Shown: positions 31,787-53,829 of the stretch, one piece after another
How positions within the stretch are numbered: position 1 is the first letter of the stretch
Layout: each line of letters opens with the position of its first letter
Assembly: GCA_036785375.1 (NCBI GenBank)
Contig: JAWMAR010002088.1
Span: 1-64,000, forward strand
From: Leucoraja ocellata
Taxonomy: Eukaryota
DNA: 64,000 nucleotides
Reading direction: 5' to 3'
The notes under the pieces: generated by a model
What the model was told of the DNA's origin: nothing
The model's input: only the letters and a program-made list of their open reading frames with translations
The model's database searches: none
Position numbers and translations under genes: made by a program

Positions 31787-31838
31787 ATGCTTCTTTTTAC
31801 CTTACTCAACACTTACGGTGTGGCCACTGTCTCATCTG
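31787..31838 (+). CDS. MHC class I-like gene exon 1 (signal peptide MLLFTLLNTYGVATVSS)
   Basis: aaaacATG start, hydrophobic leader ending VSS, donor G|GTAAGC in phase 1 matching exon 2 (G+AT = Asp). Confidence 0.72.
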
Positions 31839-32116
31839 GTAAGCAATGCTCCTTCTACTTGCGAACTTTGAGAAAACAACAATACTGATTCTATTTGTTG
31901 TTGCACAGCACCTGTGTTTGGCTTGGGTTCATTGTCTTGGATGTATTCATTGAATTATTGAATTGAATGTACATTTGGGTAATGGTGATTCCTGAATTGT
32001 GAAGGCTGCTGTGAGAAGTTATATATACTATGGTTACCATGGCAATCCATTGAAGAGAAGAACTGAATACATGTAAATAATGAGCATAGTGCATGGGATA
32101 ATACAGCTTAGGAGCA

Positions 32117-32212
32117 GTCTGAAGAAGGGTCTTGACCCAAAACGTCACCTATTCATTTTCTCCAGAGAGGCTGCCTGACCCGCTGAGTTACTCCAGCACT
32201 TTGTGTCTACCT
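32117..32212 (+). mobile_element. Penelope-like repeat with hammerhead-like core
   Basis: ctgaagaagggtcttgacccaaaacgtc at 32119-32146. Confidence 0.55.
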
Positions 32213-32214
32213 TC

Positions 32215-32600
32215 GGCCCACAATGTCTGTGCTGAACAAAATCTAATCTCCTCTACCTGTATGTGATCCTTATCCGCCCATTCCATGCCTATCTATGTAC
32301 CTATCTAAAAGCCTCTGAAATGTAACTGTTATATCTCCCACCACCACCACCACCACTGGCAATGCATTACAGGTGTCCACCACCCTCCACATAAAACAAC
32401 GCCTCGCTCATCTCCTTTGAACATTGCTTCTCCTACCTTAAAGTGATGTTCTCTGGTCTTCAACATTTCCACCCTGGGAAAAAGGTTGTGACTGTCCATT
32501 ATGTCTGTGCCTCTCACCATGTTATGCACTTTCATCAGGTCTCCCTTCAACCTCCAGTATACAAGTGAAACAACCCATGTTTGTCCAATCTGTCCTTGCA
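32215..32600 (-). mobile_element. Old CR1 3' fragment
   Basis: ORF 32329-32601 WRLKGDLMKVHNMVRG... Confidence 0.75.
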
Positions 32601-33514
32601 CTAATATCTCAGACAGAATTCAGGTAAACCAGTGATGTGCACTTTCAATAAAGAAGCGTCTTCTGCAGCAGTAGGTGTCCCACCTCTCCAAGATTTCCTC
32701 AGCTGATGTTAGACACCCACATGATGGTAAAAATCAGCTTGCATTAAATGACCAATCTATGTTGTTTTAATGTTGTGTTATCTTGTTCTGTTTGCTGCAT
32801 GCATCACTCTCCTGCAGACCCTATCCATTATCCCACCACCACTTACCCAGAAGAGGATAACCACATTTAAGACGCTTGAGGATAGGCATGTGGATATGCA
32901 GGGAATTGAGGGATATGAATCGTGTACAAGCATGAAGAGTTGAGTTTAACTTGACATCATGTTCGGCACAGACAATGTGGCTGAACTCTAACCCATTACA
33001 CCCTTAATAAACAAAAATCTATCAATCTCAATCTGGAAATGTTCAAGAGGGCAACACATTCAACAGATTACAGAATCGAGAACCAGAGGACATAGGTTTA
33101 AATTGAGGGGGGAAAGATTTAATGGGAATCTGATGAGCAATTTCTTCCCACACAATGCTTCTTTTCTAACTATTCTGACAATCATCAAGGGTTGGAGATT
33201 ACAAACCTGTAATCGGTTGCTCGTCCTGAAAGTTTAATCCCATTGTTATCAGATGAAAATAAATATAATGGTGATTCCCTGTTAAAATAATAACATATAA
33301 AACAAAAATCCTTGGCTATGGAGTGTTTTGGGATTTTATCGTTACTGTATTCCACACTTAGTCTTCTTATGTTTCTTCTGGTAACAGTGAAACAGACACT
33401 TATAACTCTGCCCTGGGGGCCCCTTCTCACCTCAATTAAACACATGAACTTTGACACTGTCTGGTGTGTTGCCTGTAATCTTTATCACAGAACAAATACT
33501 GCTTATTCATGAGG

Positions 33515-34020
33515 AAACAAGAAACTGCAGATGCTGGTTAATTGGCATAAAAGGGGAGTAATTCAGCAGGTCAGTCAATATGTCTGGAGAACATGGATAG
33601 GTGATGTTTCAGTTGAGACAAGTGTAAGAAGGAACTGCAGAAGCTGATTTAAACCGAAGATGGACAATAAAGCTGGATTAACTCAGCGTCCCTAGAGAGA
33701 AGGAATGGGTGACGTTTTGGGTCGAGACCCTTCTTCTGACTGCTGATGCAGATGCTGGTTTACACCGAAGATAGATACAAAAGGCTGGAGTAACTCAGCA
33801 AGTCGGGCAGCATCACTGGAGAATAGGAATAGGTGGAGTTTCAGGTGAAGACACTGCATCAATCAGGGGTCCATATATTTCATTGTACTTTTTCATATAT
33901 CTCGGTTCCCTGTTCCCTGACTCTCAGTCTGATGAAGGGTCTCGACACCAAACGTCACCTTTTCCTTTTCTCCGGAGATGCTGCCTGACCCACTGAGTTA
34001 CTCCAGTATTTTGTGTCGAG
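33515..34020. mobile_element. Cluster of tandem and inverted Penelope-like terminal repeats
   Basis: Three gatgctgg...agtaactcagc copies followed by an inverted copy with ctgatgaagggtctcgacaccaaacgtc (33929-33956). Confidence 0.6.
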
Positions 34021-34037
34021 TTTCAGTTTAGGCCCTG

Positions 34038-34678
34038 TTAACCATATAACCATATAACAATTACAGCACGGGAACAGGCCATCTCGGCCCTACAAGTCCG
34101 TGCCGAACAACTTTTTTTCCCTTAGTCCCACCTGCCTGCACTCATACCATAACCCTCCATTCCCTTCTCATCCATATGCCTATCCAATTTATTTTTAAAT
34201 GATACCAATGAACCTGCCTCCACCACTTCCACTGGAAGCTCATTCCACACCGCTACCACTCTCTGAGTAAAGAAGTTCCCCCTCATATTACCCAAAACTT
34301 CTGTCCCTTAATTCTGAAGTCATGTCCTCTTGTTTGAATCTTCCCTATTCTCAAAGGGAAAAGCTTGTCCACATCAACTCTGTCTATCCCTCTCATCATT
34401 TTAAAGACCTCTATCAAGTCCCCCCTTAACCTTCTGCACTCCAGAGAATAAAGACCTAACTTATTCAACCTTTCTCTGTAACTTAGTTGTTGAAACCCAG
34501 GCAACATTCTAGTAAATCTCCTCTGTACGCTCTCTATTTTGTTGACATCCTTCCTATAATTGGGCGACCAAAATTGTACACCATACTCCAGATTTGGTCT
34601 CACCAATGCCTTGTACAATTTTAACATTACATCCCAGCTTCTATACTCAATGCTCTGATTTATAAAGGCTAGCATACC
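34038..34678 (-). mobile_element. CR1 family A 3' fragment
   Basis: Tail plus ORF 34283-34705. Confidence 0.93.
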
Positions 34679-37600
34679 ACACAGTTTATCACAGTCTCCT
34701 CCCACCCATCTCTATGAGCTGTGTTGCAGCTAATAGACATGCTGCCTATGAGGACCTGGACTCAGTTCTGATCTCTTACAACCTGGCATTTTTTTAAATT
34801 TTTCCTGCAAACGTGTGTTTTCTATGGTTATTCCAGTTTCCCCCAACGTCCCAAAAATGCCGGGCTGAAAGGTAAGTTGGCCAGTGTGAATTGATCATGC
34901 AGATGTATTAGAATTGCTGTAGGGGATGGGGGAAGTGTTAATGGCAGAGTGGAAAATATTAAATGGGTTAGCGTACCACAAGTATAAATAGGTGTTTGAT
35001 AGTTACCACGAACTTGGTGGGCTAAAGGGCCTTTTTATGGTCTGTACCCAGAGGCCACAAGTTTAAGATGAGGGGGGAATGATTTAATAGGAACCTGAGT
35101 CGTAGCTTTGTTACACAAAGGGTGGTGGGTGGAACTGAATTAACTGCCGGAGGAGGTAGTTCCGGCACGTACTATCGCAACATTTTAGAAACACTAGACC
35201 AAGTGCAGACCCATTGGGTCTGTTTCCCCAACGGCGTTTGCGGGGGGGGGGGGGGGGGGGGGGGGGGGGCGCATCACACTCACATTAACCACCCCCCCAA
35301 ACACACAGGTGGGGGGAGGGGGATGAGAAGAGGAGGGGGATTGGAGAGGAGGAGGAGGAAACAAAACAGATTAGGGAGGGAAAGGAGAACGGGTAGCGGG
35401 TGAGAGAGGGGGATGGGGAGAGAGATGTGGGGGAGGGAGTGATGAGGAGGGAGGGAGGGAGGGGAGAGGGGTGGGGAGAGAGAGGGGAAAGAGTGGGGAG
35501 GGAGAGTGGAGGGGGGAAGGGGGGAGAGAAGTGGAAGAGTGGAGAGGGAGGGGTAGGGGCAGTGGTAGAAGAGGGACAGAGGGGTAGGGGGCAGGGGGAG
35601 AGAGGGAAGGGTGGGGTAGAGAGGGAAGGGGGGTGGGGGAGCGAGGGATGGGGGAGGGAGTGAGGAGAGGGGGAGGAGATAAGGGGGAGAGAAGTGGAAG
35701 AGTGGAGAGGGAGGGAGGTGTAGAGGGGTAGCGGGAGTGGTGGAAGAGGGACGGGGAGTGGTGGAAGAGGGACAGAGGGGTAGGGGAAGGGGTGGGGGAG
35801 AGAGGGGTGTGGGAGGGAGAGGGGTGGCGTAAGGGCAGAGAAGTGGAAGAGTGGGGAGGGAGGGGTAGGGGAGTGGTGGAAGAGGGACAGAGGGGTAGGG
35901 CGAAGGGGGCAGGGGAGAGAGGGAAGGGGGGTGGGGAGAGCGGTGAGGAGAGAGAAACATAGAAATTGGGTGCAGGAGTAGGACATTCGGCCCTTCGAGC
36001 CTGCACCACCATTCAATATGATCATGGCTGATCATCCAACTCAGTATCCCGTACCTGCCTTCTCTCCATACCCCCTGATCCCTTTAGCCACAAGGGCCAC
36101 ATCTAACTCCCTCTTAAATATAGCCAATGAACTGGCCTCAACTACCTTCTGTGGCAGAGAATTCCAGAATTTCACTCTCGGTGTGAAAAATGTTTTTCTC
36201 ATCTCTTTCCTAAAGGATTTCCCCGTATCTTTAAACTGTGACCCCTTGTTCTGGACTTCTCCAACATCTGGAACAATCTTCCTGCATCTAGCCTGTCCAA
36301 CCCCTTAAGAATTTTGTAAGTTTCTATTAGATACCCCGTCAATCTTCTAAAATCTAGCGAGTACATGCCGAGTCTATCCAGTCTTTCTTCATATGAAAGT
36401 CCTGACATCCCAGGAATCAGTCTGGTGAACCTTCTCTGTACTCCCTCTATGGTAACAATGTATTTGAGCATTGGGCATTGTGACATCACACGATGGAACG
36501 TTCACCAGGGGCTGGGGCTGGGGCTGATTCTATGGGTGAGAAGCCAGTTTTTTTTTAAAATATTGGGGGGGGGGAGAAGGATTTGATTAAAAATGTGTAC
36601 ATAAACATGACGAAATGTAATCAGGAGCGGATACTTTGAAAGAAAAGTGAAATCTCTACCGAAATGGAAAATATCTCGGCGATTCTGCGTCTGGATTCGG
36701 CGTGGCAAGGAATCAAAGGAAGAAAGGCAGTCGACAGCCGTACATGTAAATGGATCTATTCCAATTGGACATCTGCGAGCATTGGGCATTGTGACATCAT
36801 ACGATGGAACAAATCAAAAGGCAGAAAGGCAGGCGGACGGACGGACGGACGGGGGCAGCCACAGAGTTTTAATCTATAACTAGACCAAGTGCAGACCCCT
36901 TGGGTCTGTTTCCCCAACGGCGTTTGCGGGGGGGGGGGGGGGGCTGCGGCATCACACTCACATTAACGACCCCCCAAACACACAGGTGGAGGGAGGGGGG
37001 TGAAAAGAGAGGAGGGAGGGGAGAGGAGGGGGATGGAACGGGACAGATTTGGGAGGAAAGGAGAGCGGGGTAGCGGTTGAGAGAGGGGATGAGGAGAGAG
37101 ATATGGGGGAGGGGAGGGAGGGGAGGAGGGAGGGAGGGGGAGAGGGGTGGGGGAAGAGAGGGGAAAGAGTGGGGAGGGAGACTGGAAGGGGAATAGGGAG
37201 AGAAGTGGGGGGAGTGAGGGGTAGGGGGAGTGGTGGAAGAGGGACAGAGGGGTAGGGGAAGGGGGCGGGGGGAGAGGGAAGGGGGTGCGGTAGAGAGTGA
37301 ATAGGGTGGGGGAGAGAGGGATGGGTGGGAGAGGGAGAGGGGTGAGGAGAGGGAAACAGAAACATAAGAAACTATAAGATCACCCCTCAATCTTCTAAAT
37401 TCTAGCGAGTACAAGCCGAGTCTATCCAATCTTTCTTCATACTCTCTGCCACAGAGGGTAGTTGAGGCCAGTTCATTGGCTATATTTAGGAGGGAGTTAG
37501 ATGTGGGCCTTGTGGCCAAGGGGATCAGAGGGTATGGAGAGAAGGCAGGTACGGGATACTGAGTTGGATGATCAGCCATGATCATATTAAATGGCGGTGC

Positions 37601-38771
37601 AGGCTCGAAGGGCCGAATGGCCTACTCCTGCACCTAATTTCTATGTTTCTATGTTTCTATATGAAAGTCCTGACATCCCAGGAATCAGTCTGGTGAACCT
37701 TCTCTGTACTCACTCTATGGCAAGAATGTCTTTGGGCATTTGGCTTTGTGACATCACACGATGTAACGTGGGGTGAGAGAGGGGAATGGGGAGAGAGATG
37801 TGTGGGAGGGGAGGGATTGGGAGGGAGGGGAGGAGCGAGGGAGGGGGAGAGGGGTGGGGGGAGATAGGGGAAAGAGTGGGGAGGGAGAGTGGAGGGGGAA
37901 GGGGGAGAGAAGTGGAAGAGTGAGGAGGGAGGGGTAGAGGAAGCGAGTGGGGGAGAGGGAAGGGGGGGGGGGTGGGGGAGAGAGACATGGGTGGGAGAGG
38001 GAGAGGGGTGAGGAGAGGGAAACATAGAAACATAAGATTCTATAAGTGTGAATATAAATTCTATATGAGTCAGTCTGGTTAACCTTCTCTGTACTCCCTC
38101 TATGGCAACAATGTCTTTGGGCATTGGGCATTGTGACATCACATGATGGAACGTTCACCAGGGGCTGGGGCTGGTACAAAGGCATATGTAAATGGATCCA
38201 TCCCGATTGGACATCTGCGAGCATTGGGCATTGTGACATCACACGATGGAAACGAATCAAAAGGCAGAAAGGCAGCCGGACAAACGGACGGCGGCAGCCA
38301 CAGAGTTTTAATATATAACTAGACCAAGTGCAGACCCATTGGGTCTGTTCCCCCCAGTTGTGGGGGGTGGGGGGGAGGTGGCATGCAGCATCACACACAC
38401 TAACAACCCCTCCCCCCCGCCCTCATGCTAATTACCCCCCTTGATATTATATTAATATTATTAATTTGCTCCTTTTATCCCATAACCACCCTATCTACTG
38501 ACGCATAGCCCCAACTTGCAGTCACATCTAGAGAGGGGGGGAGGGGGAGGGAGGGGTAGAGAGTGAGGGCAGAGAGAGAAGGGGCAGAGACACAGAGAGA
38601 GGGGCAAGAGGGAGAGGGGTGGCGAGGAGGAGAAGAGGGAGGGTGGGTGAGAGGGGAAAGGTGGGGGTGGAGGGGAGGAGAGAGAGAGGGTGAGAGTGAG
38701 GGGAAGAGAGGGGGGAGGAGAGGGGGGGAGGGGAGGGGGGGAGGAGAGGGGGGGAGGAGAGGGGGAGAGGA

Positions 38772-39985
38772 GAAACATAGAAACATAGAAAGTAGGAGCG
38801 AGAGTAGACCACCAGGCCGTCGAGCCCGCACCGCCATTCGCTCATGGCTGAACACTAAACAGACACACTTACCCACAAACAGTAGACACAAGACACAGAA
38901 CACAAGACACTACCCTCCCCTTTATACCGCTATCACCCCTCTCCACCCCAAGAACCTCGTGATCTCCTGGGGGAGGCAAAAATACGGATAAAAACCCAGG
39001 TCCAATTCGGGAAAAAAATCCGGGAAATTCCTCTCCGACCCCAATCCAGGCGATCGACACTTGTCCAGGAGATCACTCAGGTCTTACTATACTAACCATA
39101 CCTAGGTCCATATCCCTGCCCTCTCCCCGTAGCCCCTTATCCCCTTGGCAGCTAAAAAACCATCTATTTTAGTCTTAAATATATTTAAAGTTTCTGCTTC
39201 CACTGCTCCCTGGGGCAGTGAATTCCATAAATTAACCACCCTCTGGGTGAAGAAGTTCTTCCTCATCTCAGTTTTAAAAGAGCCCCCCTTATTCTGCAAC
39301 TATGTCCCCTAGTTCTAGTTTCCCCGATCATTGGGAACATCCTCGGTGCATCCACCCGATCAAGGCCCCTCACGATCTTATATGTTTCAATGAGATCGCC
39401 TCTCATTCTTCTAAACTCCAAAGAGTAGAGTTCCAGCCTACTTAACCTTTCCTCATATGTCAATCCCCTCATTGCAGGATTAATCTTGTAAACCTTCGCT
39501 GCACTGCCTCCAGGGCTAGTACATCCTTTCTTAAGTATGGACCCCAGAACTGTACACAGTATTCCAAATGTGGTCTCACTAATACTGTGTACAGCTGCAG
39601 CAAGACCTCCGTGTTTTTATACTCAATCCCCCTAGCAATAAAGGCCAAAACTCCATTGGCCTTCCTGATTGCTTGCTGCACCTGCATACTAACTTTCAGT
39701 GATTCATGTACTAATACCCCTAGATCCCTTTGCGTTGCATTACAACGCAGCTCCTCCTCATTTAGAAAATAACTTGCCCTATCATTTTTTTCCCAAAGTG
39801 AATGACTTCACATTTATTAGTATTAAATTTCATCTGCCAAGTTGTTGCCCACTCACCTAGCTTATCTATATCCTTTTGCAGACTCTTCCTATCCTCCTCA
39901 TCCCCTACTTTTCCTCCCATTTTTGTATCGTCCGCAAATTTTGATATATTACACTTGGTTCCCTCCTCCAAATCATTTATATAAA
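38772..39985 (-). mobile_element. CR1 family C fragment (distinct 3' UTR) inside a Helitron unit
   Basis: ORFs 39762-39971 (KFADDTK), 39469-39687, 39263-39472 and 39102-39299; gaaacata tail. Confidence 0.88.
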
Positions 39986-40067
39986 ATGGGGGGAGAGGAG
40001 AGGGGGGAGGAGAGGGGTAGAGGAGAGGAGGGGGGGAGGGGAGGGGGGGACGAGAGATGGGGACGAG

Positions 40068-40215
40068 AGGGATTGGATGAGAGGGGGGGACGAGAGGGGG
40101 GACGAGAGGGGGGGCGAGAGGGGGGGCGAGAGGGGGGCGAGAGGGGGGGCGAGAGGGGGGCGAGAGGGGGGGCGAGAGGGGGGGCGAGAGGGGGGGCGAG
40201 AGGGGGGCGAGAGGG
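40068..40215. repeat. (GAGAGGGGGGC)n ~11-bp tandem repeat
   Basis: Direct observation, about 12 units. Confidence 0.85.
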
Positions 40216-41028
40216 GGGAGAGGAGAGGGGGGAGAGGAGAGGGGGGGAGGTGGAGAGGGGGGGGAGGTGGAGAGAGGGGGGGAGAGGAGAGGGGGGGGGG
40301 GGGGGGGGAGAGGAGAGGGGGGGGAGAGAGAGAGTGCCTTTTTATTTCAACCCAAACCCCCAAACAACCATTTGGAGGCAGTGCTTTTTGACTTTAACCA
40401 TATTTTCATTTTCAAACCACATTAATGGTACTTACTCACAGTTGTGTGCACATTTGTTCAGTTTATTCACAGCTCAGAGAAACGTGACCCGCTGCCTTCC
40501 TCCAGCTTGCAGACTAATTGATGCACACCACTTCCCGGTTTTATACGGCCGTAGGTGGCGGTGTTCTCTCGGAAATCGCAACACAGATGGCCAAAACTGG
40601 TCAAGAACAGACTAACAGACTTTTAGTAATATAGACTAGACCAAGTGCAGACCCGTTGGGTCTGTTTCCCCAACGGCGTTTGCGGGAGGGGGGGGGCGGG
40701 TGGCTGTGGCATCACACTCACATTAACCACCCCCCAAACACACAGGTGGGGGAGGGTGGGTGGGAAGAGGGGAGGGAGGGGAGAGGAGGAGGAGGAAACA
40801 GAACAGATTTGGGAGGGAAAGGAGAGCAGTATAGGTGTTGAGAGAGGGGGATGGGGAGGGAGGGGGAGAGGGGTGGGGGAAAGAGGGGAAAGAGTGGGGA
40901 GGGAGAGTGGAGGGGGAAGGGGGGAGAGAAGTGGTACTGATGAAATACAGGCACTGTAGATGGGGCATGTTGGCCGGTGTGGCAGTTTGAGCCGTAGGCC
41001 CTGAGTCCATGCTGTATGACTCTACGAC

Positions 41029-41093
<65 letters not shown>

Positions 41094-41980
41094 AAAACTC
41101 TCATCTTGACCGCTTCCTGTCTGCATTGCAACTAAATTTGCGCAAAACGACCCCCCAGAGGGCAATGATTTTTTGCACCTTACTAATCATTCTCCAATGC
41201 TACAAGTCAAATAGGTTTTGTTTCGATTGGTGAAATAGTACAAAAGTTATGGTATTCAATGATCCCCCTCCCCCACAACCCCCCCCTCCACCACAGCCTC
41301 CCTTCTCGCACACGACCCCTCCCCAAACCCCCACCCCCATTTCTCCACATCACCCTTCCCCCACCCCCACCTACCTCCCCACATCTCCCTCCCCCCACAC
41401 ACCCCCTCCCTCACATCGCCTCGTTCACACACCCCCACACCCCGCCTCCCCCACCCCCTCCCCACACCTCCCTCCGCAACTGTCCCCCAATACTCCCCAA
41501 CCCCACCCCCTCCCCCACACAACCCCCAACTCCACCCTACCCCCGTCCCCCACACACCCCCTCCCCAAACTCCCCCACACCGCCCTCCCCCACACCCCAT
41601 CCCCTCACACCCCTCCTCCACTCCACCCTCCTTCCCCCTCCCCACACCCCCCTCTCACACACCCCCTCCCCCACACCACCCTCTCACAACGCCTCTCCCC
41701 CACACCCCTCCACTTCCGCACATCCTCTCCCCCACATCCCCTCCCCAACCCCTCCCTCAACTCCCTCCCCATCCCCATCCCATTAAACCCCCCCTCCCCC
41801 ACACCACCCTCTCACAATGCCCCTCCCCCACACCCCCTCCACTTCCCCACATCCTCTCCCCCACATCCCCTCCCCCAACCCCTCCCTCACCTCCCTTTCC
41901 CACCCCCAACCCCCTCCCCTACACCCCCCTCCACCCACCCCTGCCACAAACACCCTCTCTCTCACACCCCCACCTCTTAA
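41029..41980 (+). mobile_element. (TCTG)n followed by a Helitron 5' end on + and a C-rich tract
   Basis: TCTATAAAACTC...TCTTGACCGCTT at 41089, resembling the 5' ends at 21775 and 40635; no 3' CTAG seen. Confidence 0.6.
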
Positions 41981-42139
41981 TATAATTAAATATTCTTTGA
42001 ATTTTGGAATATTGTAACTATCGACATGATAGACAATAATAGATCTTTGAAGATGGGAAGCATCCAATCGGATAATTCAATACCTCGACCACACTTGGTG
42101 GAGTAGGTATCAGAGCCCATCTTGCCAACTCTTGAAGAT

Positions 42140-42418
42140 GGCTCAGTGGTGCAGCGGTAGACTTGCTCCCTTATCTCGATTACAGCACCGTAGACCCAGG
42201 TTGGATCGCGACTGTACGGAGTTTGTACATTCTCCACATGATTCTTCCCACATTCCAAAGACATAGAGGTTTGTAGGTTAATTGGATTGGTGTAGAATGT
42301 AAATTGTCCCTTGTGTGTGTAGGATGGTGTTAGAGTGTGGGGGTTGCTGGCCAGTGTGGACTCAGTGGGCCGAAGGGCATGTTTTCATGCTGCATCTCTA
42401 GCTGAAACCTAAACTAAA
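42140..42418 (+). mobile_element. HE1-like SINE
   Basis: ggctcagtggtgcagcggtaga head and gggccgaagggc...ctaaactaaa tail. Confidence 0.8.
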
Positions 42419-42610
42419 GGCTCCTGACCCAAATTGTTACCTGATCATTGATGCTGCCTGCCCCACTGAGCTCCTCCAGCACTTGGATCTGCAGATCCTT
42501 GTAACACCCTTATTCAAATTTCTTGTACTGTTATCAGTTTTAGCATTAATAGCTTTGAGTTCTTTACAGTGAATGATACAATCATACTCATTTTTGTTTA
42601 TGCATTGCAG

Positions 42611-42871
42611 ATTTTCACCAACTTGCATTTTACTACCTGTTGAACCATGGATTGAGTGAGCTGCCTGAGTACAGTATGGTAGCAATGTTGGATGACCTCC
42701 AGATAGCATATTTTGACAGCACATTAGAGCGGGCTGTTCCCAGACAGCGATGGATGGCCCAGTCTTTCCCGCAGGATCACTGGGATTCAATGGCCATCAC
42801 AGTTGCAGGTTTTCATGGGATTGTCAAAGGAAATGCTGAGATCGTTTACCAACAGCAACATGGTATATTGA
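42611..42871 (+). CDS. MHC class I-like exon 2 (alpha1 domain)
   Basis: ttgcAG acceptor, A|GTAAGT donor, 261 nt; (D)FHQLAFYY...LPEYSMVAMLDDLQIAYFDS...AVPRQRWM...DHWD. Confidence 0.92.
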
Positions 42872-42989
42872 GTAAGTGTCGTGACCGGACCTGGGGTGGA
42901 GACCCAGTGATGCCACAGATGGATTTTGTTTTAGTTTTGTTGCTGTCACATGTACTGGAGTAATCTGACACACTTGTTTTGCACGTTAG

Positions 42990-44200
42990 TCAATCACACC
43001 AAATAATATTATTCACAAATACAATCAAACCAAACTCAAGTACAATAGGTAGAGCAAAGAGTGCAGAATATAGTTCTCAGCATTGTAATGTGCCAGTGCC
43101 AGAGACAAAGTCCAGTGTCTACAACAAGGTTGAGGTGACCCCTAGCATAAGGGAGGACTGTTCAGAAACCTGATAACATTAGGGAGGAACCAGCTACTGA
43201 GTCTAGTGGGGCACGTTTTCAAGCTTGCGTACCTTCTGCTGGATGGAAATGTTAAAATTGTACAAAGCATTGGTGAGACCAAATCTGGAGTATCGTGTAC
43301 AATTTTGGTCGCCCAATTATAGGAAGGATGTCAACAAAATAGAGAGAGTACAGAGGAGATTTACTAGAATGTTGCCTGGGTTTCAACAACTAAGTTACAG
43401 AGATAGGTTGAATAAGTTAGGTCTTTATTCTCTGGAGCGCAGAAGGTTAAGGGGGGACTTGATAGAGGTCTTTTAAATGATGAGAGGGATAGACAGAGTT
43501 GATGTGGACAAGCTTTTCCCTTTTAGAATAGGGAAGATTCAAACAAGAGGTCATGACTTCAGAATTAAGGGACAGACGTTTAGGGTAATATGAGGGGGAA
43601 CTTCTTTACTCAGAGAGTGGTAGCTGTGTGGAATGAGCTTCCAGTGGAAGTGGTGGAGGCAGGTTCGTTGGTATCATTTAAAAATAAATTGGATAGGCAT
43701 ATGGATGAGAAGGGAATGGAGGGTTATGGCATGAGTGCAGGCAGGTGGGACTAAGGGAAAAAGGTTGTTCGGCACGGACTTGTAGGGCCGAGATGGCCTG
43801 TTTCCGTGCTGTAATTGTTATATGGTTATATGGTTATATGGAAGAAGAAGGAATGACCAGAGCGGGATGAATCTTTGATTATGTTGTCTGCTTTCCTGAG
43901 CCAGTTGAAATACAGATGGTCTCAATGGTGGGGAATTGTGTTTGTGTGATCGACTGTGCTACATCTCCACATCTCGGCAATTTCCAGCGGTCTTGGGCAG
44001 AACTCTTTCCAAACTAAGTTGTGATGAATCCTGCCAGTATGCTTCTATGGAACATTCGTAGAAGTTTGTAAGTGTCATTGGAGATGCCGCATTTCCGTAG
44101 TGTCCTGAGGCAGTAGGGGAACCAGAAGCTCTCAAACCTTTTCACTTCAGCACCATTGATGCTGTTTCGGGCATTTACTCCATCACATTTTGATAGAGAC
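42990..44200 (-). mobile_element. Degenerate Rex1/Babar-like LINE 3' region interrupted by CR1-A
   Basis: Minus strand ccatagaagcatactggcaggattcatcacaac resembles the IESILxGCITxW motif. Confidence 0.5.
43249..43840 (+). mobile_element. CR1 family A 3' fragment
   Basis: ORF 43225-43476; ttatatggttatatggttatatgg tail. Confidence 0.93.
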
Positions 44201-44378
44201 ACGGCCCATCTTTTATATTAAATGTGTCCTTACCGCTGAACACCCATTGATAACAGTTGGCTGGTGATAATATATTTATGGGTTATGCATTTGATATTCA
44301 ACACCAGTAATAAGTGGATGGAATGGATCATCTGTTTAATTGGGCTAGAATGAGGGAGAAAACATTAGTTTATTTATA

Positions 44379-44475
44379 TTCTGAAGAAGGGTTTTGACCT
44401 GAAACGTTGCCTATTTCCTTCGCTCCATAGATGCTGCTGCACCCGCTGAGTTTCTCCAGCACTTTTGTGTACCTT
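44379..44475 (+). mobile_element. Penelope-like repeat with intact hammerhead core motifs
   Basis: CTGAAGA-A-GGGT-TTTG-ACCT-GAAA-CGTT at 44381-44408. Confidence 0.55.
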
Positions 44476-44741
44476 AGTTTATTTATAGCCTGATCACCTA
44501 GAGATGGGACCTTGATTTAAGCTGGTTGATGGTGATTATGATGTATTCCTTCAGTAATAATATTCTGTTAATGCAGCATTCCCTCAATATTGGCAACAAT
44601 CCTCAGAGGGTGTAGCAATCCCACATGGTGCAACAGCCTTGATGTACTTCCCATCTGCATTGCCTTAACCTTCAGACTTACCTGTTGGCTCTGAAGCATT
44701 ACCCATCTGACAATGCACTTCTTCCTTTGTTCTTTATGTAT

Positions 44742-44833
44742 GAAATCTGAGTTCTATCCTTCTTACAGAGCAGAACACCTTTAGTGCAGAAATCTGAGTT
44801 CTATCCTTCTTACACAGCAGAACACCTTTAGTG
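44742..44833. repeat. Direct tandem duplication, 47-bp period
   Basis: gaaatctgagttctatccttcttaca(g/c)agcagaacacctttagtg twice. Confidence 0.9.
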
Positions 44834-45376
44834 TTACATCCACAACAGCAAAGCTTCTCCCCTCAACACTTGAGGTTAGTCTATGCCCTCAGTATATAGA
44901 CCATGGGTCATAGAGTCATTGTCACACATCATGGAAAACGGCCCTTCTGCTCACTGAATCCACACTGATCATCAATTGTGCTAAGATGGAGTCATAGCCA
45001 ACTGCAGATGCTGCCAATCTGAATTAAAAACAAACAGGAGGAACTCAACGAGTCAGTCAGCATTCTGTGGAAAAATGGACAGAAAACATATTAGACCAGG
45101 ACCATTTAGAGTGATGTAGGTTGGAGAAAGCTGGAAAGAAAGTAGTCTGTGTAGGATAGTGTTAATATGCGGGGACCACTGGTCGGTACGGACTCGGCGG
45201 GCTAAAGGGCCTCTTTCCGCGCTGTATCTCTAAACTAAACCTGCTCCTGTGCTGTACAGCTCTATGTTGTGTTCTGTTATGCCTGTTTGTACCATGCTGA
45301 GAACTGATTTGTAAATTGCCTCTCCCCTCCATCCCCACTCCCCAACCCAAATCCTCCACCCCTACCTCAGCCCCAG

Positions 45377-45652
45377 CTATTTTCTTTGTGCAGGGTTTCT
45401 GCGGCTGTGAAGTGGACAGTGACAATTCCACTGATGGGTTTGTCAGACTAGGTTATGACGGGGAGGATGCCTGTGCTTTCGACAAGGACAGAATGCGCTG
45501 GATTGCACTACGTCCAGATTTCCAGGTGCTAGCAGATCGGTGGAATATCAACACCTTCATGAACAAATATTTCAAAGATCTCCTGGAGAAGGACTGTGTG
45601 AAGTGGCTGCTGATATATGTGGAGTGTGGACAAGAAGCACTACAGAGGAGAG
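45377..45652 (+). CDS. MHC class I-like exon 3 (alpha2 domain)
   Basis: cccAG acceptor, G|GT donor, 276 nt; VQGFCGCE, GYDGED, DCVKWL carrying the C101/C164 pair. Confidence 0.94.
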
Positions 45653-45755
45653 GTACACGACCTAGGCACTCTGACTGGTGGGACCGGGGATATCCTCTAG
45701 ATAGATAAGGTGGGAAATATCATGCACTTCAGGCTGACACTTGAGCAATTATTTT

Positions 45756-46055
45756 GTTTAGTTCAGAGATGCAGTTAGGAAACAGGCCCTTTGGCCCACC
45801 GAGACCGCACCAGCCAGTGATGCCCACTCACTAACACTATCCTACACACACGAGGGACAATTTGCATTATACCAACCCAATTAACCTACAAATTTGTACG
45901 TCTTTCGAGTGTGAGGGGATACCGAAGATCTCGGATAAAACCCATGCAGTTCACAGGGAGAACGTACACACTCTGTGAAGACAAGCACCCGTAGAAAGTT
46001 TCAAACCCAGGTTTCTGGTGCTGTTAGGCAGTGGCTCAACCGCTTCGCCACCCTG
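45756..46055 (-). mobile_element. HE1-like SINE
   Basis: Reverse-complement SINE with gtttagtt tail. Confidence 0.8.
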
Positions 46056-46336
46056 TTCTTGGGCGAGGGTATCAGTAAATTGTCTGGCAACGTGTCTCTT
46101 AGATGGATCCAGTGGGTAGGAAGTGCAAGTGAAACATTAACATTGCACAAGTGTCCACTATTCACACATATAGATATTCAATAAATGGAGGGATATGTAT
46201 CTTGATCTTATGTTCAACACCGACCTTCTGGCCTGAAGGGTCTGTCGCTGAACTGATCAGAAACCCAAACAGATTCTCTATTTGCCTCTATTACTCCTTA
46301 GGTTGGTAACATTCAATTTCCAACAGTTCTCTGGTT

Positions 46337-48350
46337 AAACATAGAAACATAGAAAATAGGTGCAGGAGTAGGCCATTCGGCCCTTCGAGCCTGCACCGCC
46401 ATTCAATATGATCATGGCTGATCATCCAACTCAGTATCCTGTACCTGCCTTCTCTCCATACCCCCTGATCCCTTTAGCCACAAGGGCCACATCTAACTCC
46501 CTCTTAAATACAGCCAATGAACTGGCCTCAACTACCTTCTGTGGAAGAGAATTCCACAGATTCACCACTCTCTGTGTGAAAAATGTTTTTCTCATCTCGG
46601 TCCTAAAAGATTTCCCCCTTATCCTTAAACTGTGACCCCTTGTCCTGCATTTCCCCAACATCAGGAACAATCTTCCTACATCTAGCCTGTCCAACCCCTT
46701 AAGAATTTTGTAAGTTTCTATAAGATCCCCCCTCAATCTTCTAAATTCTAGCGAGTACAAGCCGAGTCTATCCAGTCTTTCTTCATATGACAGTCCTGAC
46801 ATCCCAGGAATCAGCCTGCTGAACCTTCTCTGTACTCCCTCTATGGCAAGAATGTCTTTCCTCAGATTAGGAGACCAAAACTGTACACAATACTCCAGAT
46901 GTGGTCTCACCAAGACCCTATACAACTGCAGTAGAACCTCCCTGCTCCAATAGTCAAATCCTTTTGCTATGAATGCTAACATGCCATTCGCTTTCTTCAC
47001 TGCCTGCTGCACCTGCATTCATACTTTCAATGACTGGTGTACCATGACACCCAGGTCTCGTTGCATCTCCCCTTTTCCTAATCGGCCACCATTCAGATAA
47101 TAGTCTACTTTCCTGTTTTTGGCACCAAAGTGGATAACATCACATTTATCCACATTATACTGCATCTGCCATGCATTTGCCCACTCACCCAGCCTATCCA
47201 AGTCATCTTGCAGCCTCCTAGCATCCTCCTCACAGCTAACACTGCCCCCCAGCTTTGTGTCATCCGCAAACTTGGAGATGTTGCATTCAATTCCCTCGTC
47301 CAAATCATTAATACATATTGTAAATAGCTGGGATCCCAGCACTGAGCCTTGCGGTACCCCACTAGTCACTACCTGCTATTGTGAAAAGGACCCGTTTACT
47401 CCTACTCTTTGCTTCCTGTCTGCCAGCCAGTTCTTTATCCACATCAATACTGAACCCCCAATACCGTGTGCTTTAAGTTTGTATACTAATCTCTTATGTG
47501 GGACCTTGTCGAAAGCCTTCTGAAGGTCCAGATATAACACATCCACTGGTTCTCCCTTATCCACTCTACTAGTTACATCCTCGAAAAATTCTGTAAGATT
47601 CGTCAGACATGATTTACCTTTCATAAATCCATGCTGACTTTGTCCAATGATTTCACCACTTTCCAAATGTGTTGCTATCCCATCTTTAATAACTGATTCT
47701 AGCAGTTTCCCCACTATCGATGTTACAGGTCTGTAATTCCCCGTTTTCTCTCTCTCTCCCTTTTTAAAATGTGGGGTTACATTAGCTACCCTCCAATCCT
47801 CAGGAGCTACTCCAGAATCTAAAGAGTTTTGAAAAATTATCACTAATGCATCCACTATTTCTGGAGCTACTTCCTTAAGTACTCTGGGATGCATCCTATC
47901 CGGCCCTGGGAATTTATCAGCCTTTACTCCATTCAATTTACCTAACACTACTTCCCAGCTAACCTGGATTTCACTCAGTTCCTCCATCTCATTTGACCCC
48001 CCGGTCCCCTGCTATTTCCGGCAGATGATTGATGTCTTCCTTATTGAAGACAGAACCAAAGTAGTTATTCAATTGGTCTGCCATGTCCTTGTTCCCCATG
48101 ATCAATTCACCTGTTTCCGACTGCAAGGGACCTACATTTTATTAAACTAATCTTTTTCTCTTCACATATATATAAAAACGTTTGCAGTCAGTTTTTATGT
48201 TCCCTGCCAGTTTTCTTTCATAATCTATTTTCCCTTTCCTAATTAAGCCCTTTGTCCTCCTCTGCTGGACTGAATTTCTCCCAGTCCTCTGGTAGGCTGC
48301 TTTTTCTGGCTAATTTGTATGCTTCATCTTTTGGTTTGATACTATCCCTG
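46337..48350 (-). mobile_element. CR1 family B 2-kb fragment (defective RT)
   Basis: ORFs 46431-47018, 47019-47369 (FADD) and 47376-47987. Confidence 0.95.
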
Positions 48351-48938
48351 TCTTTTTGTTACATTTTAGTTGCGATTTTTTAAAACTATAATTAATTAAT
48401 TATTAACTATGGTGATAGATGTGGCCCGCCATCCACTCACAGACATGGGTCCTGGCTCCTATGCTGCAGAACAAGGTTGTCGAGCCCGGTGTGAAATGTA
48501 TGTTTTTAGTGTTCTTTAGCTTGTTTTACGTGGGGTGGGGATGAGGGGGGGGGGGGGGATGGGGTTGGGGGGAAACGTTTTCTAATATCTTACCTCGATG
48601 GAGATGCGATATTTTTCTGTATCGTTTCTCGGTCCGCACTGCGGCCTAACATCCAGGAGTTGGCGACCTTTGTTGGAGACCGTCTTTTGTCAGTTCTACT
48701 GTGGGTGCTTGTGGACTTAACATCACGGAGCTCACGATCCCTTTGCCAGGAATCGACCTCGAGATCCAACCGTTGGTGCTTGCGGACTTAACATCACGGA
48801 GCTCGCAGTCTCTGGTCAGAGACCGACCTCGGGAGCTCCAAGCCGCAGGTGCTTCGACCACCCTGACATAGGTGCTTCAACTGCCCGCTGCGTGAGCTTC
48901 GATCACCCCGACGATGGTTCGACTGCCCCGACCATGGG
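48351..48938. repeat. Non-CR1 segment shared with 62891-63490
   Basis: Near-identical sequence attached to the same CR1 breakpoint in both copies. Confidence 0.85.
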
Positions 48939-49479
48939 AGCCCTTTGTCCTCCTCTGCTGGACTTCTTCCTCCCATTCCCTCTTGGAATATTTAGTGTTA
49001 TTATTCAGCAGAGATTTGTGACAAGCAGAAGCAATCACATCTACAGTATCAATCCCAATGGTGAGTTATACTCCTCCATTGGGCCCTGCATTCCCCTTCC
49101 GTCTGTGTTGTCAGTTAAAGTCTGGAGCAAAGATATAGAGCATGTCAGAGATATTAAAACTAAATGTTTTGTTGTTTTGTCAGAAATGCAAAATGAAAAG
49201 AGAAAAGGCTGAGAAACTTTGTGCAAAATAGAACTGCAGATGATGGTTTACACCGAAGATAGAAGATGTTCGAGTAACTCAGTGGGTCAGATAGCATCTC
49301 TGGGCATTCCTTCTCTCCAGAGATGCTGCCTGACCTGTTGGCTTATTCCAGCATTTTGGGTCGTGGCTGGAAACTTTGTTCAGCCAGAGAAGCCTGGGAA
49401 AGAGGTGAGGTGTAGTGATCTTCCAATTGACGACTTTTCTTCATGTCTTCACTGATTCTAACGCTTCTTCTACTTGCAG

Positions 49480-49752
49480 AAACCCCCGAGGTGTTTATTG
49501 GGATTAAACGTGATGGGTCGCAATCACTGAGCCTCTCCTGCCTTGTCACAGGCTTCTACCCACAGGCCATCGATGTAACGTGGCTGAGAGATGGTGAGGG
49601 GGTCACCGGGTTTGAATCCAGTGATCTGTTACCGAATTGGGATGGGACTTACCAGCTGAAGAATACAATTGAACTGATTAAAGAAGATGTGGCAAAATTC
49701 TCCTGTTACATCGAACATACAACTCTGCTGCGGGGAGTCAATGTTCCACAGG
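49480..49752 (+). CDS. MHC class I-like exon 4 (alpha3 Ig C1 domain)
   Basis: ttgcAG acceptor, G|GTAAGT donor, 273 nt; LSCLVTGFYPQAIDVTWLRDG, LPNWDGTYQL, FSCYIEH. Confidence 0.95.
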
Positions 49753-49844
49753 GTAAGTGGCAAGTGAATGAGTCTGATCACTTGAGACCATAAACCTCAT
49801 GGACTGAGATAACAGCCTCAACTCACACTCTTACCTCACCTGTG

Positions 49845-50160
49845 GATTTAGACTTTAGACTTTAGAGATAAAGTGCAGAAACAGGCCATTCAGCTCACTG
49901 AGTCGTTGCCGAACAGTGATCATCCCGTACATTTACATTATCCAGCACACTGGGGACAATTTACAATTTTACCTAAGCCAATTAACCCACAAGCCTGTAT
50001 TTGTTTGGAATGAGTGAGGAAACCGAAGCACCCGGAGAAAACCCACGCAGTCCCAGGGAGAACGTACAATGTCCTTTCAGACAGCTCTTGTAGTCAGGAT
50101 CGAACCCAGGTCTCTGGTGCAGTAAGGCAGCAGCTCTACCATTACGCCACTGTGCCACCC
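49845..50160 (-). mobile_element. HE1-like SINE
   Basis: Near full length; head (reverse complement) ggtggcacagtggcgtaatggtagagctgctg. Confidence 0.85.
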
Positions 50161-50213
50161 ATTATTAATTTGTGGGTTTCTAATTGCCCATAAATATTGA
50201 TAGTCAATGGAAT

Positions 50214-50490
50214 GTAGTTTTAGTTTAAGAGATACAGCGCATAAACAGGCCCTTCAGCCCACCAAGTCCGTGTCAACCAGCAATTCCTGCACATTTACAT
50301 TAACTTACATATTAGGGACAATTTACAATTATACCAAGTCAATTAACCTACAAACCTGTCCGTCTTTGGTCTTTGGGAGGAAATCGGAGATCCAGGGCAA
50401 AACCCACGCAGGTTCCGGGGAGAAGGTACAAACTCTGTGCAGACGGGACCCGCAGTCAGAATTGAACCCGGGTCTCTGGCGCTGTAAGGC
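50214..50490 (-). mobile_element. HE1-like SINE (5' truncated)
   Basis: Similar to the adjacent copy. Confidence 0.8.
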
Positions 50491-50494
50491 AAAA

Positions 50495-51318
50495 CATAGG
50501 CAGATGGAATACAGTGTAGCAAGTATCTGGTTGAGCATTTTGGTAGTGGGAATAAAGACATAGACTATTTTCTAATTGGGGTGAGAATTCAGAAATCTAA
50601 GGGACTTGGGAGTACTAGTGCAGGGTTCCCAAATAGTTAATTTGCAGATTGAGTCAGTGGTTCCCAAATAGTTAATTTGCAGATTGAGTCAGTGGTTCCC
50701 AAATAGTTAATTTGCAGATTGAGTCAGTGGTAAGTAAGGCAAATGCAATGCCAGCATTTATTTCGGGGGGACTAGAATATAAAAACAATGATATAATGCT
50801 GAGGCTTTATCGGTCACTGGTGAGGATATATTTGGAACATTGTGAGCAGTTTTGGGCCCCATATTAGAAAGGATGTGCTGGCTTTGGAGAGAGTCCAGAG
50901 GATGTATGTCCTGGGGATGGGCCTGTACACGTGGGGATTTAGAAGGATGAGGGGGAAAATCTCTGAGACCTACCAGATAATTAAAGCCCTAGTTAGTGGA
51001 TGTGGAAAGGATGTTTTCAGTAATGGGGGAGTCTAGCACAGCCTTGCAATAAAAATATGTACCTTCAAAATGGAGATGAGGAGGAATTTCTTAAGTCACA
51101 GTGTGTTGAATCTGTGGAATTCATTGGTACAGACAGCTGTGTGGGTCAAGTCATTGCATATCTAAAAGCAGAGAATGATAGGTTCTTGATTAGTATGGGT
51201 GCCAAAAGTTACAGCGAGAAGGCAGGTGAATCAGAGGTAAAAATAGATCTGCCATGATGAATGGTGGAGTAGACTCGATGGACTGAAAGGCATAATTCCA
51301 CTCCAATGTCTTATGGTC
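50495..51318 (+). mobile_element. Old degenerate CR1 3' fragment
   Basis: RKDVLALERVQR remnant and CR1 3' UTR. Confidence 0.75.
50624..50728. repeat. Perfect 3 x 35-bp tandem repeat
   Basis: ggttcccaaatagttaatttgcagattgagtcagt three times. Confidence 0.95.
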
Positions 51319-51873
51319 AAAATTATTCTTACATCACCTTTAACTCACCCATCCAAATGTAGGAACAGTGGAAGCAAGATAGGCTGATCCTGGCCAAGGT
51401 CTCTTATCTTCTCTCTTGGGCATCTAACTAATTTTCTGATTGTAGTTAGTTGCACAAAAGGCCAATAATGGTGCCATTATCAGTCTGAAGTAGCAGCACC
51501 TGTTCTGTAGCTGACTTATTTGTTCCAGACAAGACCTCGGCAAAGATCTTCACACCAGGGCCAAGCTGACATGGTTACAATTGCTGGTCAGTATCAATAG
51601 ACAGTAATGTGTGTGTGTTTGTGTGGGCTCATGTGTGTGAGACAGAGAGGGGGGAGAGAGGGGGGGGTGGGAGATGGGGGGGAGAGGGGGGGGGGGAGAA
51701 AGAGAGAGTGTGTGTATGAGAAAATTAAACTCTCAGATATAACATATAACAATTACAGCACGGAAGCAGGCCATCTCGACATATCATTGAATATTCAATA
51801 TATCATTGAAATATCAGCACAGTTTAAAACCTTTGAAGTGTTATCACAAAAAATGGGTAACTTTTATTTGCTA

Positions 51874-53218
51874 CTAGACCAAGTGCAGACCCGTTGGGTC
51901 TGTTTCCCCAACGGTGTTTGTGGGGGGAGGACGTGGGGGGGCTGCGGCATCACACTCACATTAACCACCCCCCAAACACACAGGTGGCGGGAGGGGGGGT
52001 GAGAAGAGGGGAGGGAGGGAGGGGAGAGGAGGAGGAGGAAATGGGACAGATTTGGGAGGGAAAGGAGAGCGGGGTAGGGGGTGAGAGAGGGGGATGGGGA
52101 GAGAGATGTGGGGGAGGGGAGGGGGAGAGGGGTGGGGGGAAAGAGGGGAAAGAGTGGGGAGGGAGAGTGGAGGGGGAAGGGGGGAGAGAAGTGGAAGAGC
52201 GGGGAGGGAGGGGTAGGGGAAGGGAGTGGGGGGAGAGGGAAGGGGGTGGGGTAGAGAATGAAGGGGGGTGGGGGAGAGAGGCATGGGTGGGAGAGGGAGA
52301 GGGGTGAGGAGAGAGAAACATAGAAACATAAGATTCTATAAGATCCCCCCTCAATCTTCTAAATTCTAGCGAGTACAAACCGAGTCTATCCAGTCTTTCT
52401 TCATATGAAAGTCCTGACATCCCAGGAATCAGTCTGGTTAACCTTCTCTGTACTCCCTCTATGGCAAGAATGTCTTTGGGCATTGGGCATTGTGACATCA
52501 CACGATGGAACGTTCACCAGGGGCTGGGGCTAATTCAATGCGTTAGAAGCCAGTTTATTTTTGAAACATTGGGGGGGGGGAGAAGGATTTGATTAAAAAC
52601 GTGTACTTAAACATGACAAAATGTAATCAGGAGCGGATACTTTGAAAGAAAAGTGAAATCTCTACCGAAATGGAAAATATCTCGGCGATTCTGCGTCTGG
52701 ATTCGGCATGGCAAGGAATCAAAGGAAGAAAGGCAGTCGACAGCCGTACATGTAAATGGATCCATTCCGATTGGACATCTGCGAGCATTGGGCATTGTGA
52801 CATCATACGATGGAACAAATCAAAAGGCAGAAAGGCAGGCGGACGGACGGACGGGGGCAGCCACAGAGTTTTAATCTATAACTAGACCAAGTGCAGACCC
52901 GTTGGGTCTGTTTCCCCAACGGCGTTTGCGGGGGAGGGGGGTGGCTGCGGCATCACACAAGTGAAATCTCTACCGAAATGGAAAAGATGTCGGCGATTCT
53001 GCGACTGGTTTCGGAGTTGCAGGGAATCAAAGGAAGAAATACAGCCGGCAGCCGTCCATGCAAATGGATCCATTCCGATTGGACATCTGCGAGCATTGTG
53101 CATTGTGATTGGACATCTGCGAGCATTGGGCATTGTGACATCACACGATGGAAACGAATCAAAAGGCAGAAAAGCAACTGGACGGCAGCCGGTCGGATGG
53201 GGCGAGAGTTTTATATAT

Positions 53219-53263
<45 letters not shown>
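51874..53263 (-). mobile_element. Two-unit Helitron array in MHC intron 4
   Basis: CTAG at 51874 and 52882; 5' end TCTATATATATAAAACTC preceded by TCTA repeats (53220-53263 = 11 TAGA on +); flanks gcta|taat (A|T). Confidence 0.87.
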
Positions 53264-53268
<5 letters not shown>

Positions 53269-53580
53269 ACAATCGTCAACATAACAAAACGGCATTGTTG
53301 ACCTCTAGACTGCAAATAGTAATCGATTTCTGACGTACTTGATTCTTTAAATTCTTAATTAAATGCTGCAGATAAAATCACAAAATCTCAATGCCAATAT
53401 GAACTTCAAAGATTTTTCATTGATCCATTTAAACTTCCATCCTCTGGACAATTACATCAATCTAAGACTTTATTACTTTGTAATTAGATGTGAACAGTGC
53501 TAGTTTAATGTAGATAATAAAATCATTACAACGTTGTTATTGATCAATAAATATTTAAAATGCTCTATATTTGCCTACAG

Positions 53581-53786
53581 AGAGGGCAGCGAAAGATGAT
53601 ATAAAAATTAGGATCGTGACTGGAGCTGCAATCGTTCCTCTCATTCTCCTGGGGATCATCCTTGGAATAGGTTGCTGGAAGAAGAGGAAAAGGAAAAAAA
53701 ATCACAATGAACAGGGACCAGCTGACAACAGCAGAGACCAGGAGATGACTGCAGTGACCATGAAGCACAATCAGCTTCCTTTGTGA
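53581..53786 (+). CDS. MHC class I-like exon 5 (connecting peptide, TM, cytoplasmic tail, stop)
   Basis: ctacAG acceptor in phase 1; IVTGAAIVPLILLGIILGIGCW followed by KKRKRKK stop-transfer; TGA at 53784-53786. Confidence 0.88.
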
Positions 53787-53829
53787 TGCAGAGGAGGTCT
53801 TTGGGAATGATGTCTGGATTAGTGGGGCA

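Follow-up and report, generated by a model that had tools for sequence, protein, structure and literature searches.

The window analysed here is a stretch of 64,000 nucleotides from the skate Leucoraja ocellata (assembly GCA_036785375.1, contig JAWMAR010002088.1, hereafter C2088, positions 1 to 64,000 of the forward strand), and it harbors an intact class I heavy-chain gene of the major histocompatibility complex (MHC). The gene is non-classical, as revealed by its anchor residues and by an approximately unbiased (AU) test, and, judging from the sequences compared, it very probably represents a distinct, elasmobranch-wide lineage of non-classical class I (MHC-Ib) genes within the clade of UFA and UGA. 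This lineage is called UX here, a label of our own. An MHC-linked heavy chain of the UX lineage with a CD1-like ligand mechanism is the best overall explanation of the data and appears to us somewhat probable; as for the ligand, one of lipid type is our best guess and would seem fairly likely.

The gene lies on the plus strand, and its five exons, with GT-AG ends and four phase 1 introns, give an open heavy chain of 355 amino acids. The same model, with the same exon lengths (Table 1), had been proposed in an earlier note on this DNA; it was re-derived here and the Pfam domains agree with it, MHC_I being found in the alpha1 and alpha2 exons and C1-set in alpha3, with an alpha1 match (E 2e-5) that stands under the curated cut-off. 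All the elements of a heavy chain are present, that is, leader, alpha1, alpha2, C1-set alpha3, transmembrane helix and tail on phase-1 exons, together with the C101-C164 pair. Exon 1 stands 10.8 kb upstream, and it is supported by independent orthologue gene models from the sevengill shark (P0013) and a sawshark (P0008), whose leaders closely resemble it. Between alpha1 and alpha2, more than one junction can be drawn: donors 42862 and 42871 can be joined to acceptors 45371 and 45377 in four combinations, all of them in-frame (352-357 residues), and the RefSeq model of the little skate, Leucoraja erinacea, takes the equivalents of donor 42871 and acceptor 45371. This ambiguity sits in a loop, off the groove. 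At 53784-53810 of the window, the stop of the gene comes eight codons before that of the L. erinacea model, and this holds for both copies of the assembly.

Residue numbers are those of HLA-A2, assigned by eye from the alignment published in the supplement of PMC10751288; all statements drawing on this supplement refer to the part of it used here. Two of the nine peptide-terminus anchors are kept (W147 and Y171), while the others read Y7F, Y59H, 84Q, Y123A, T143L, K146R and Y159L, and these seven positions are substituted alike in every lineage row covering them. The five beta2-microglobulin contacts W60, Q96, D119, G120 and D122 occur in the window protein, although six out of 14 orthologues have N, G or K in place of D119; the contact residues suggest that the chain would pair with beta2-microglobulin. 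The N86 sequon is absent from the window protein and from all 15 lineage rows, each of which has an N-x-S/T sequon near position 107, so that the glycan site has probably been relocated rather than lost. The anchors, the contacts and the missing N86 sequon had all been called correctly in the earlier note.

A groove that is apolar and without peptide anchors, as in CD1-like class I molecules, was found at 34 positions that we take to be those of the HLA-A2 pockets. Only two of the 34 are charged, and the mean Kyte-Doolittle value ranges from 1.19 to 1.55 in the 15 lineage rows, making UX the most apolar of the lineages compared; the corresponding values are 0.20-0.76 for UGA (seven rows), 0.60 for UFA (one full row), 0.25 for UBA, -0.06 for MR1, -0.15 for a UEA/UCA-like row, -0.29 and -0.34 for UAA, and -0.60 to -0.92 for UDA (five rows). 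The small floor residues Gly97, Cys99 and Ala123 are fixed in all 15 lineage rows; Cys99, an extra cysteine, is replaced by Phe in 7/7 UGA rows. Over 28 ray-shark pairs, identity is higher in alpha1 and alpha2 (66 and 73%) than in alpha3 (58%). Position 134, presumably a tapasin site, was dropped as an informative site, shark UAA likewise having I or V there. Concerning the tail, no YxxPhi sorting motif occurs in any of the 15 lineage tails scored (16 rows, one without a called transmembrane helix), whereas a juxtamembrane YxxI is found in six out of nine UGA records, all from rays.

Maximum-likelihood trees were built on 38 and 31 of 62-63 aligned rows, after the removal of near-duplicates, of incomplete models and of bony-vertebrate rows that carried no label; they were midpoint-rooted, and the rows taken from databases were assigned to lineages by eye, with the PMC10751288 supplement as a guide. 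UX and UGA each form a clade with 100/100 support, in both cases comprising sharks and rays, and the clade joining UX, UGA and UFA reached 96/94 with one UFA row and 99/97 with two. A union of UX with UAA/UBA was rejected by the AU test (p=1.3e-10), and so was an origin of UX by duplication of UGA in rays only (p=6e-61). Moreover, sawfish, manta, little skate and sawshark carry both UX and UGA, which implies that the two split before the separation of sharks and rays. No UAA, UBA, UCA, UDA, UFA, UGA or UHA reference row in the PMC10751288 supplement matches the gene. These data bear out the earlier note in calling the gene non-classical and support its suggestion of a divergent or undescribed lineage; one outcome that the note held to tell against this, clustering with UAA together with restored anchors, was looked for and does not occur. 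In the Protein Data Bank (PDB), the best match by sequence and also by fold is an entry with the title of a shark non-classical class I UGA, 9CH4, and three helix-motif patterns hit only UX and UGA among the proteins compared. Nevertheless, the window gene is only 41, 36 and 39% identical to skate UGA in alpha1, alpha2 and alpha3, to be compared with 40% to manta UAA in alpha2 and 42% to the UEA/UCA-like row in alpha3.

The following known lineages were considered as the identity of the gene and rejected. UGA itself is the neighbouring skate gene and forms a separate clade, and 9CH4, from the nurse shark, scores 466 bits with sawshark UGA vs 227 with the epaulette-shark UX orthologue. Both UAA rows have eight or nine anchors of the fish-type set. 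UFA, of the 8GM8 type, is a separate clade, and skate UFA is another gene on contig C392, which also carries skate UDA; UDA is 28-37% identical to the window gene, which does not share its mostly kept anchors. The only representative of the UCA/UEA group (P0078, labelled by eye) fell outside in the ectodomain and alpha1-alpha2 trees. The equivalents of Lys43 and Arg9 of MR1 are missing (A/T/I/C and Tyr, respectively, occupy these positions), and MR1 lies far off in the trees.

Orthologues were found in 15 shark and ray species (7 of 37 and 24 of 745 search candidates, plus cluster members), their ectodomains being 61-80% identical to that of the sawfish. Alpha1 is 100% identical over 86 residues to L. 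erinacea XP_055486430, and the identity to the little skate is 96% in alpha2 and 99% in alpha3. No lineage orthologue appeared outside sharks and rays among the best 150 of 4035 representatives or among the chimaera matches, which is weak evidence of absence. The lineage is mostly single-copy, with one or two records per species in most of the searches; in the sevengill shark Heptranchias perlo, 11 records that hardly differ from one another are spread over at least seven scaffolds, which reflects either a recent expansion or assembly redundancy. Searching the skate assembly with alpha2 gave seven matches among 79 candidates. One of them is a second copy on contig C563, which shows 99.5% identity across 9,032 bp and differs by one amino acid in four exons. 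In both copies the next class I gene is 80.6 kb away, and we read the second one as the other haplotype. UX is near-monomorphic in the sequences that could be compared, namely in the two copies of this assembly and in the 11 sevengill records, which differ by two single changes in alpha1-alpha2. A truncated duplicate of the window gene lies at C588:10,500-13,000, with only alpha2-alpha3 seen, an in-frame stop and a small deletion; the same relic is also modelled in L. erinacea (XP_055486496). Two further groups of sequences were observed. The Callorhinchus gene labelled UGA in the PMC10751288 supplement (P0020, matched by eye to that row, and P0079) falls outside the UGA clade of sharks and rays in our trees and may be a further lineage. 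In the lungfish Protopterus annectens, two divergent class I sequences (P0127 and P0183), one with a UGA-like alpha1 start, stay unplaced on a long branch.

As regards the genomic context, skate UGA is convergent with the window gene, their last exons lying about 53 kb apart, and the little-skate UGA row of the PMC10751288 supplement matches this neighbour on C563 and C2088. The UGA copy on C2088 has a 1-nt deletion in alpha1 compared to the intact one on C563, representing a null allele or an assembly error. At C563:965,500-966,400, a UAA-like alpha1 exon (C563:965517) precedes an alpha2 match that covers no more than 33 residues; this may be a pseudogene derived from UAA and situated next to UGA. 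Skate UDA and UFA lie near a bromodomain gene on C392. Upstream of the gene, broken GPR139-like seven-transmembrane (7TM) pieces in the window match the GPR139-like cluster that adjoins the MHC-Ib genes on sawfish chromosome 34 and serve as a marker of synteny for the MHC-Ib cluster. In the PMC10751288 supplement, one gene with the RefSeq name of the orthologue occurs on the sawfish MHC chromosome (LOC127585976, 21.8 kb), beside this cluster and flagged only "MHC-Ib"; from its name, size and neighbours, it is probably the sawfish UX orthologue. UX records apparently share contigs with UDA and UBA in Mustelus, UDA in Hypanus, UGA and UAA in Mobula, and UGA in Pristis, which indicates that UX lies on the MHC chromosome. 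Since no bromodomain, fibrillar-collagen or proteasome marker is among the matches listed on C563 or C2088, MHC linkage is based on UGA, the UAA-like exon, the GPR139-like pieces and the other species. The introns of the window gene are repeat-filled, as the earlier note had stated. In the window, an open reading frame of 620 residues for a reverse transcriptase of long interspersed nuclear element (LINE) type and integrase pieces of long terminal repeat (LTR) retrotransposons were seen, with more such sequences in many places.

Table 1. Coordinates of the UX gene and of other features (positions in the window, unless a contig is given).
Feature	Position	Strand	Remarks
Exon 1, signal peptide	31787-31838	+	52 nt coding; ATG, GT donor, phase 1
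Exon 2, alpha1 domain	42611-42871	+	261 nt; alternative in-frame donor 42862
Exon 3, alpha2 domain	45377-45652	+	276 nt; C101-C164, extra Cys99, N-x-S/T sequon; alternative in-frame acceptor 45371
Exon 4, alpha3 C1-set Ig domain	49480-49752	+	273 nt
Exon 5, connecting peptide, transmembrane helix and cytoplasmic tail	53581-53786	+	206 nt; without YxxPhi or dileucine motif
Broken GPR139-like 7TM pieces	15761-17069	+	Pfam 7tm_1; tblastn 59% in two pieces, repeat-interrupted
LINE/LTR coding pieces (examples)	58057-59916; 13513-14352	-; +	
Skate UGA	C2088 about 116,700-150,550	-	L006/L021
Skate UGA	C563 1,079,100-1,121,200	+	L003-L005, L020; intact copy
UAA-like exon	C563 965,500-966,400		L009, L022
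Truncated duplicate	C588 10,500-13,000		L016

According to these data, we can depict the following possible mechanism. The heavy chain would pair with beta2-microglobulin; the ends of a peptide would not be gripped, the anchor loss itself being observed; and a lipid or another amphipathic ligand could be accommodated in the conserved apolar groove, the floor of which would be opened by Gly97, Cys99 and Ala123. Innate-like T cells, or another conserved receptor, might then recognise the complex on the cell surface. As the tail lacks a tyrosine sorting motif, whereas ray UGA has YxxI, loading may take place not in late endosomes but along the secretory route, on the cell surface or in early endosomes, much as for CD1a, which has no sorting motifs and cycles via early endosomes (PMC8175153, in the part used here). 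The guess of a lipid, already put forward in the earlier note, is strengthened by the kinship with UGA and UFA, which bind CD1d-like lipids according to a personal communication in section 2.1 of PMC12562908, and by the groove score; the ligand remains, as it was there, a matter of inference.

Structure prediction adds little to this choice. Two models were obtained, one of the little-skate protein (predicted local distance difference test, pLDDT, 67), in which 12 additional residues separate alpha2 from alpha3, so that alpha3 is displaced (root-mean-square deviation, rmsd, about 7), and one of alpha1-alpha2 only (pLDDT 57.5). The former takes the class I fold, with 9CH4 as its best match (Z 23.7, rmsd 7.2, 258 aligned residues). 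The predicted fold thus agrees with class I without separating CD1-like grooves from MR1-, FcRn- or classical-like ones.

A number of observations weigh against a CD1-like UX. No ligand, structure or transcript of the gene came to light; in four of the eight sequencing runs listed, the matches were repeats and contigs of genomic type, and none of the matches listed spans a spliced junction, which has no bearing on whether the gene is expressed. The fold is not discriminating, 9CH4 being tied with MR1 (Z 22.9) and closely followed by chicken CD1, FcRn, ZAG and HFE (Z 20.7-21.8). Neither the trees nor the groove comparison contained any CD1 sequence, and the groove positions are those that we assume for HLA-A2. 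Groove conservation is only marginally above that of random alpha1-alpha2 sets (88% vs 83%; 97 of 2000 sets as high, p about 0.05), and the bulky residues F7, F70, M152, Y155, F156, L159 and W167 could fill the groove instead of lining it. YxxI is missing in two out of nine UGA rows, both from sawshark. Lastly, the sister link of UX with UGA alone is weak (94/77, 85/68 and 85/54), in the tree of alpha3 alone it is the UEA/UCA-like row, instead of UGA, that UX weakly joins (88/90), and a common apolar composition could draw UX, UGA and UFA together.

Different explanations have to be weighed against such a lipid-type ligand. The bulky apolar residues and the low variation would also fit a groove that is shut, or that holds a structural lipid only, in a molecule with a non-presenting role of its outer surface, like FcRn, HFE and ZAG, whose fold scores equal those of CD1; non-groove alpha1-alpha2 positions are, moreover, nearly as conserved as the groove (69% vs 75%). 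The three small residues fixed on the floor, the lipids reported for the closest relatives and the linkage to the MHC make this scenario rather unlikely. We regard it as equally improbable that the ligand is a lipopeptide or some small hydrophobic metabolite, which the free Cys99 might capture. MR1 holds its ligand covalently via Lys43, with Arg9 as a further ligand residue, and chicken YF1 takes acylated peptides; in agreement with a molecule of either kind, Cys99 is invariant in UX and replaced in UGA, W147, Y171 and a basic residue at 146 are kept, MR1 is the top alpha2 match in the PDB, and YF1 structures with N-acyl glycine are among the tied folds. On the other hand, the lysine and Arg9 of MR1 are missing, MR1 is distant in the trees, and the cysteine may be merely a small apolar residue. 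Presentation of a narrow set of hydrophobic peptides, as by HLA-E or H2-M3, could be argued from W147, Y171 and the C101-C164 bond, but the uniform substitution of seven anchors and the scarcity of charged groove positions render it very improbable.

A further explanation accepts the same biology and disputes its novelty: for the authors working on UFA and UGA, this gene may already be a second locus of UGA or bear a name, which we consider possible, if doubtful. The gene adjoins UGA and has its helix signatures, the part of PMC12562908 used here applies the term "single- or low-copy" to UFA and UGA, and the PMC10751288 supplement already lists the probable sawfish orthologue, under the generic flag MHC-Ib. 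Moreover, the release of 9CH4 dates from March 2026, and a primary paper may therefore exist. Yet no class I reference row of that supplement matches, identity to UGA (36-41%) is little above that to other lineages, and no name for UX was found in the literature searched, which did not reach the primary UFA/UGA work or the 2021 thesis of Almeida. There is a minor chance that the primary UFA/UGA work, the UDA/UEA papers, their supplements or this thesis already include the gene. Non-classical CD1-like class I molecules are already known in sharks and rays, and a lipid-binding shark class I is less new than the earlier note, which did not know the UFA/UGA work, implied. What is probably undescribed is UX as a third CD1-like lineage. 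Only tentatively would we go further and propose that this third, unnamed lineage in the MHC has its own ligand class, in the most apolar groove and with a fixed free cysteine, and its own route, without a tyrosine motif.

If this were true, elasmobranchs would have had a division of labour like that between CD1a and CD1b/d since before the split of sharks and rays. So far, UFA and UGA are the basis for asking whether presentation of lipids is as ancient as that of peptides and how CD1 originated; a third member of their clade, conserved in sharks and rays, offers an independent test, in which its ligands can be compared with the two solved structures, and helps to root the trees that tie UFA/UGA-type genes to CD1. 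Furthermore, the placement of UX corrects the MR1-like name given to these genes in the databases, which reflects best-hit annotation and is supported neither by the residues nor by the trees.

Compared with the known systems, UX resembles UGA (9CH4) in the signatures of the alpha1 and alpha2 helices and in G97, L116, A123, M152, Y155, F156, L159 and D163. It differs in having F7, H59, C99, L143, R146 and W167, where UGA has Y7, Y59, F99, F143, K146 and L/Y167, in lacking the N86 sequon that 7/7 UGA rows possess, in its more apolar groove, in a tail without YxxI and in forming a clade of its own. With UFA (PDB 8GM8), it shares the common clade, an apolar groove and the MHC-Ib cluster, although identity to basking-shark UFA is 18-36% per domain. 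UX is like classical UAA in its domain layout, the C101-C164 pair and the beta2-microglobulin contacts, and unlike it in keeping so few anchors. From MR1 it is set apart by the absence of a Lys43 or Arg9 equivalent and by its distance in the trees. The resemblance to CD1, with CD1a as the functional analogue, lies in the apparently low polymorphism, the apolar groove, the beta2-microglobulin contacts and a Gly at HLA position 97, which, by eye, the row for human CD1 in the PMC10751288 supplement also has; a tail without a tyrosine motif is a trait of CD1a (PMC8175153), not of the CD1b/c/d type. Unlike CD1, for which lipid binding is known rather than presumed, the UX gene is linked to the MHC and keeps W147, Y171 and helices of classical-type length.

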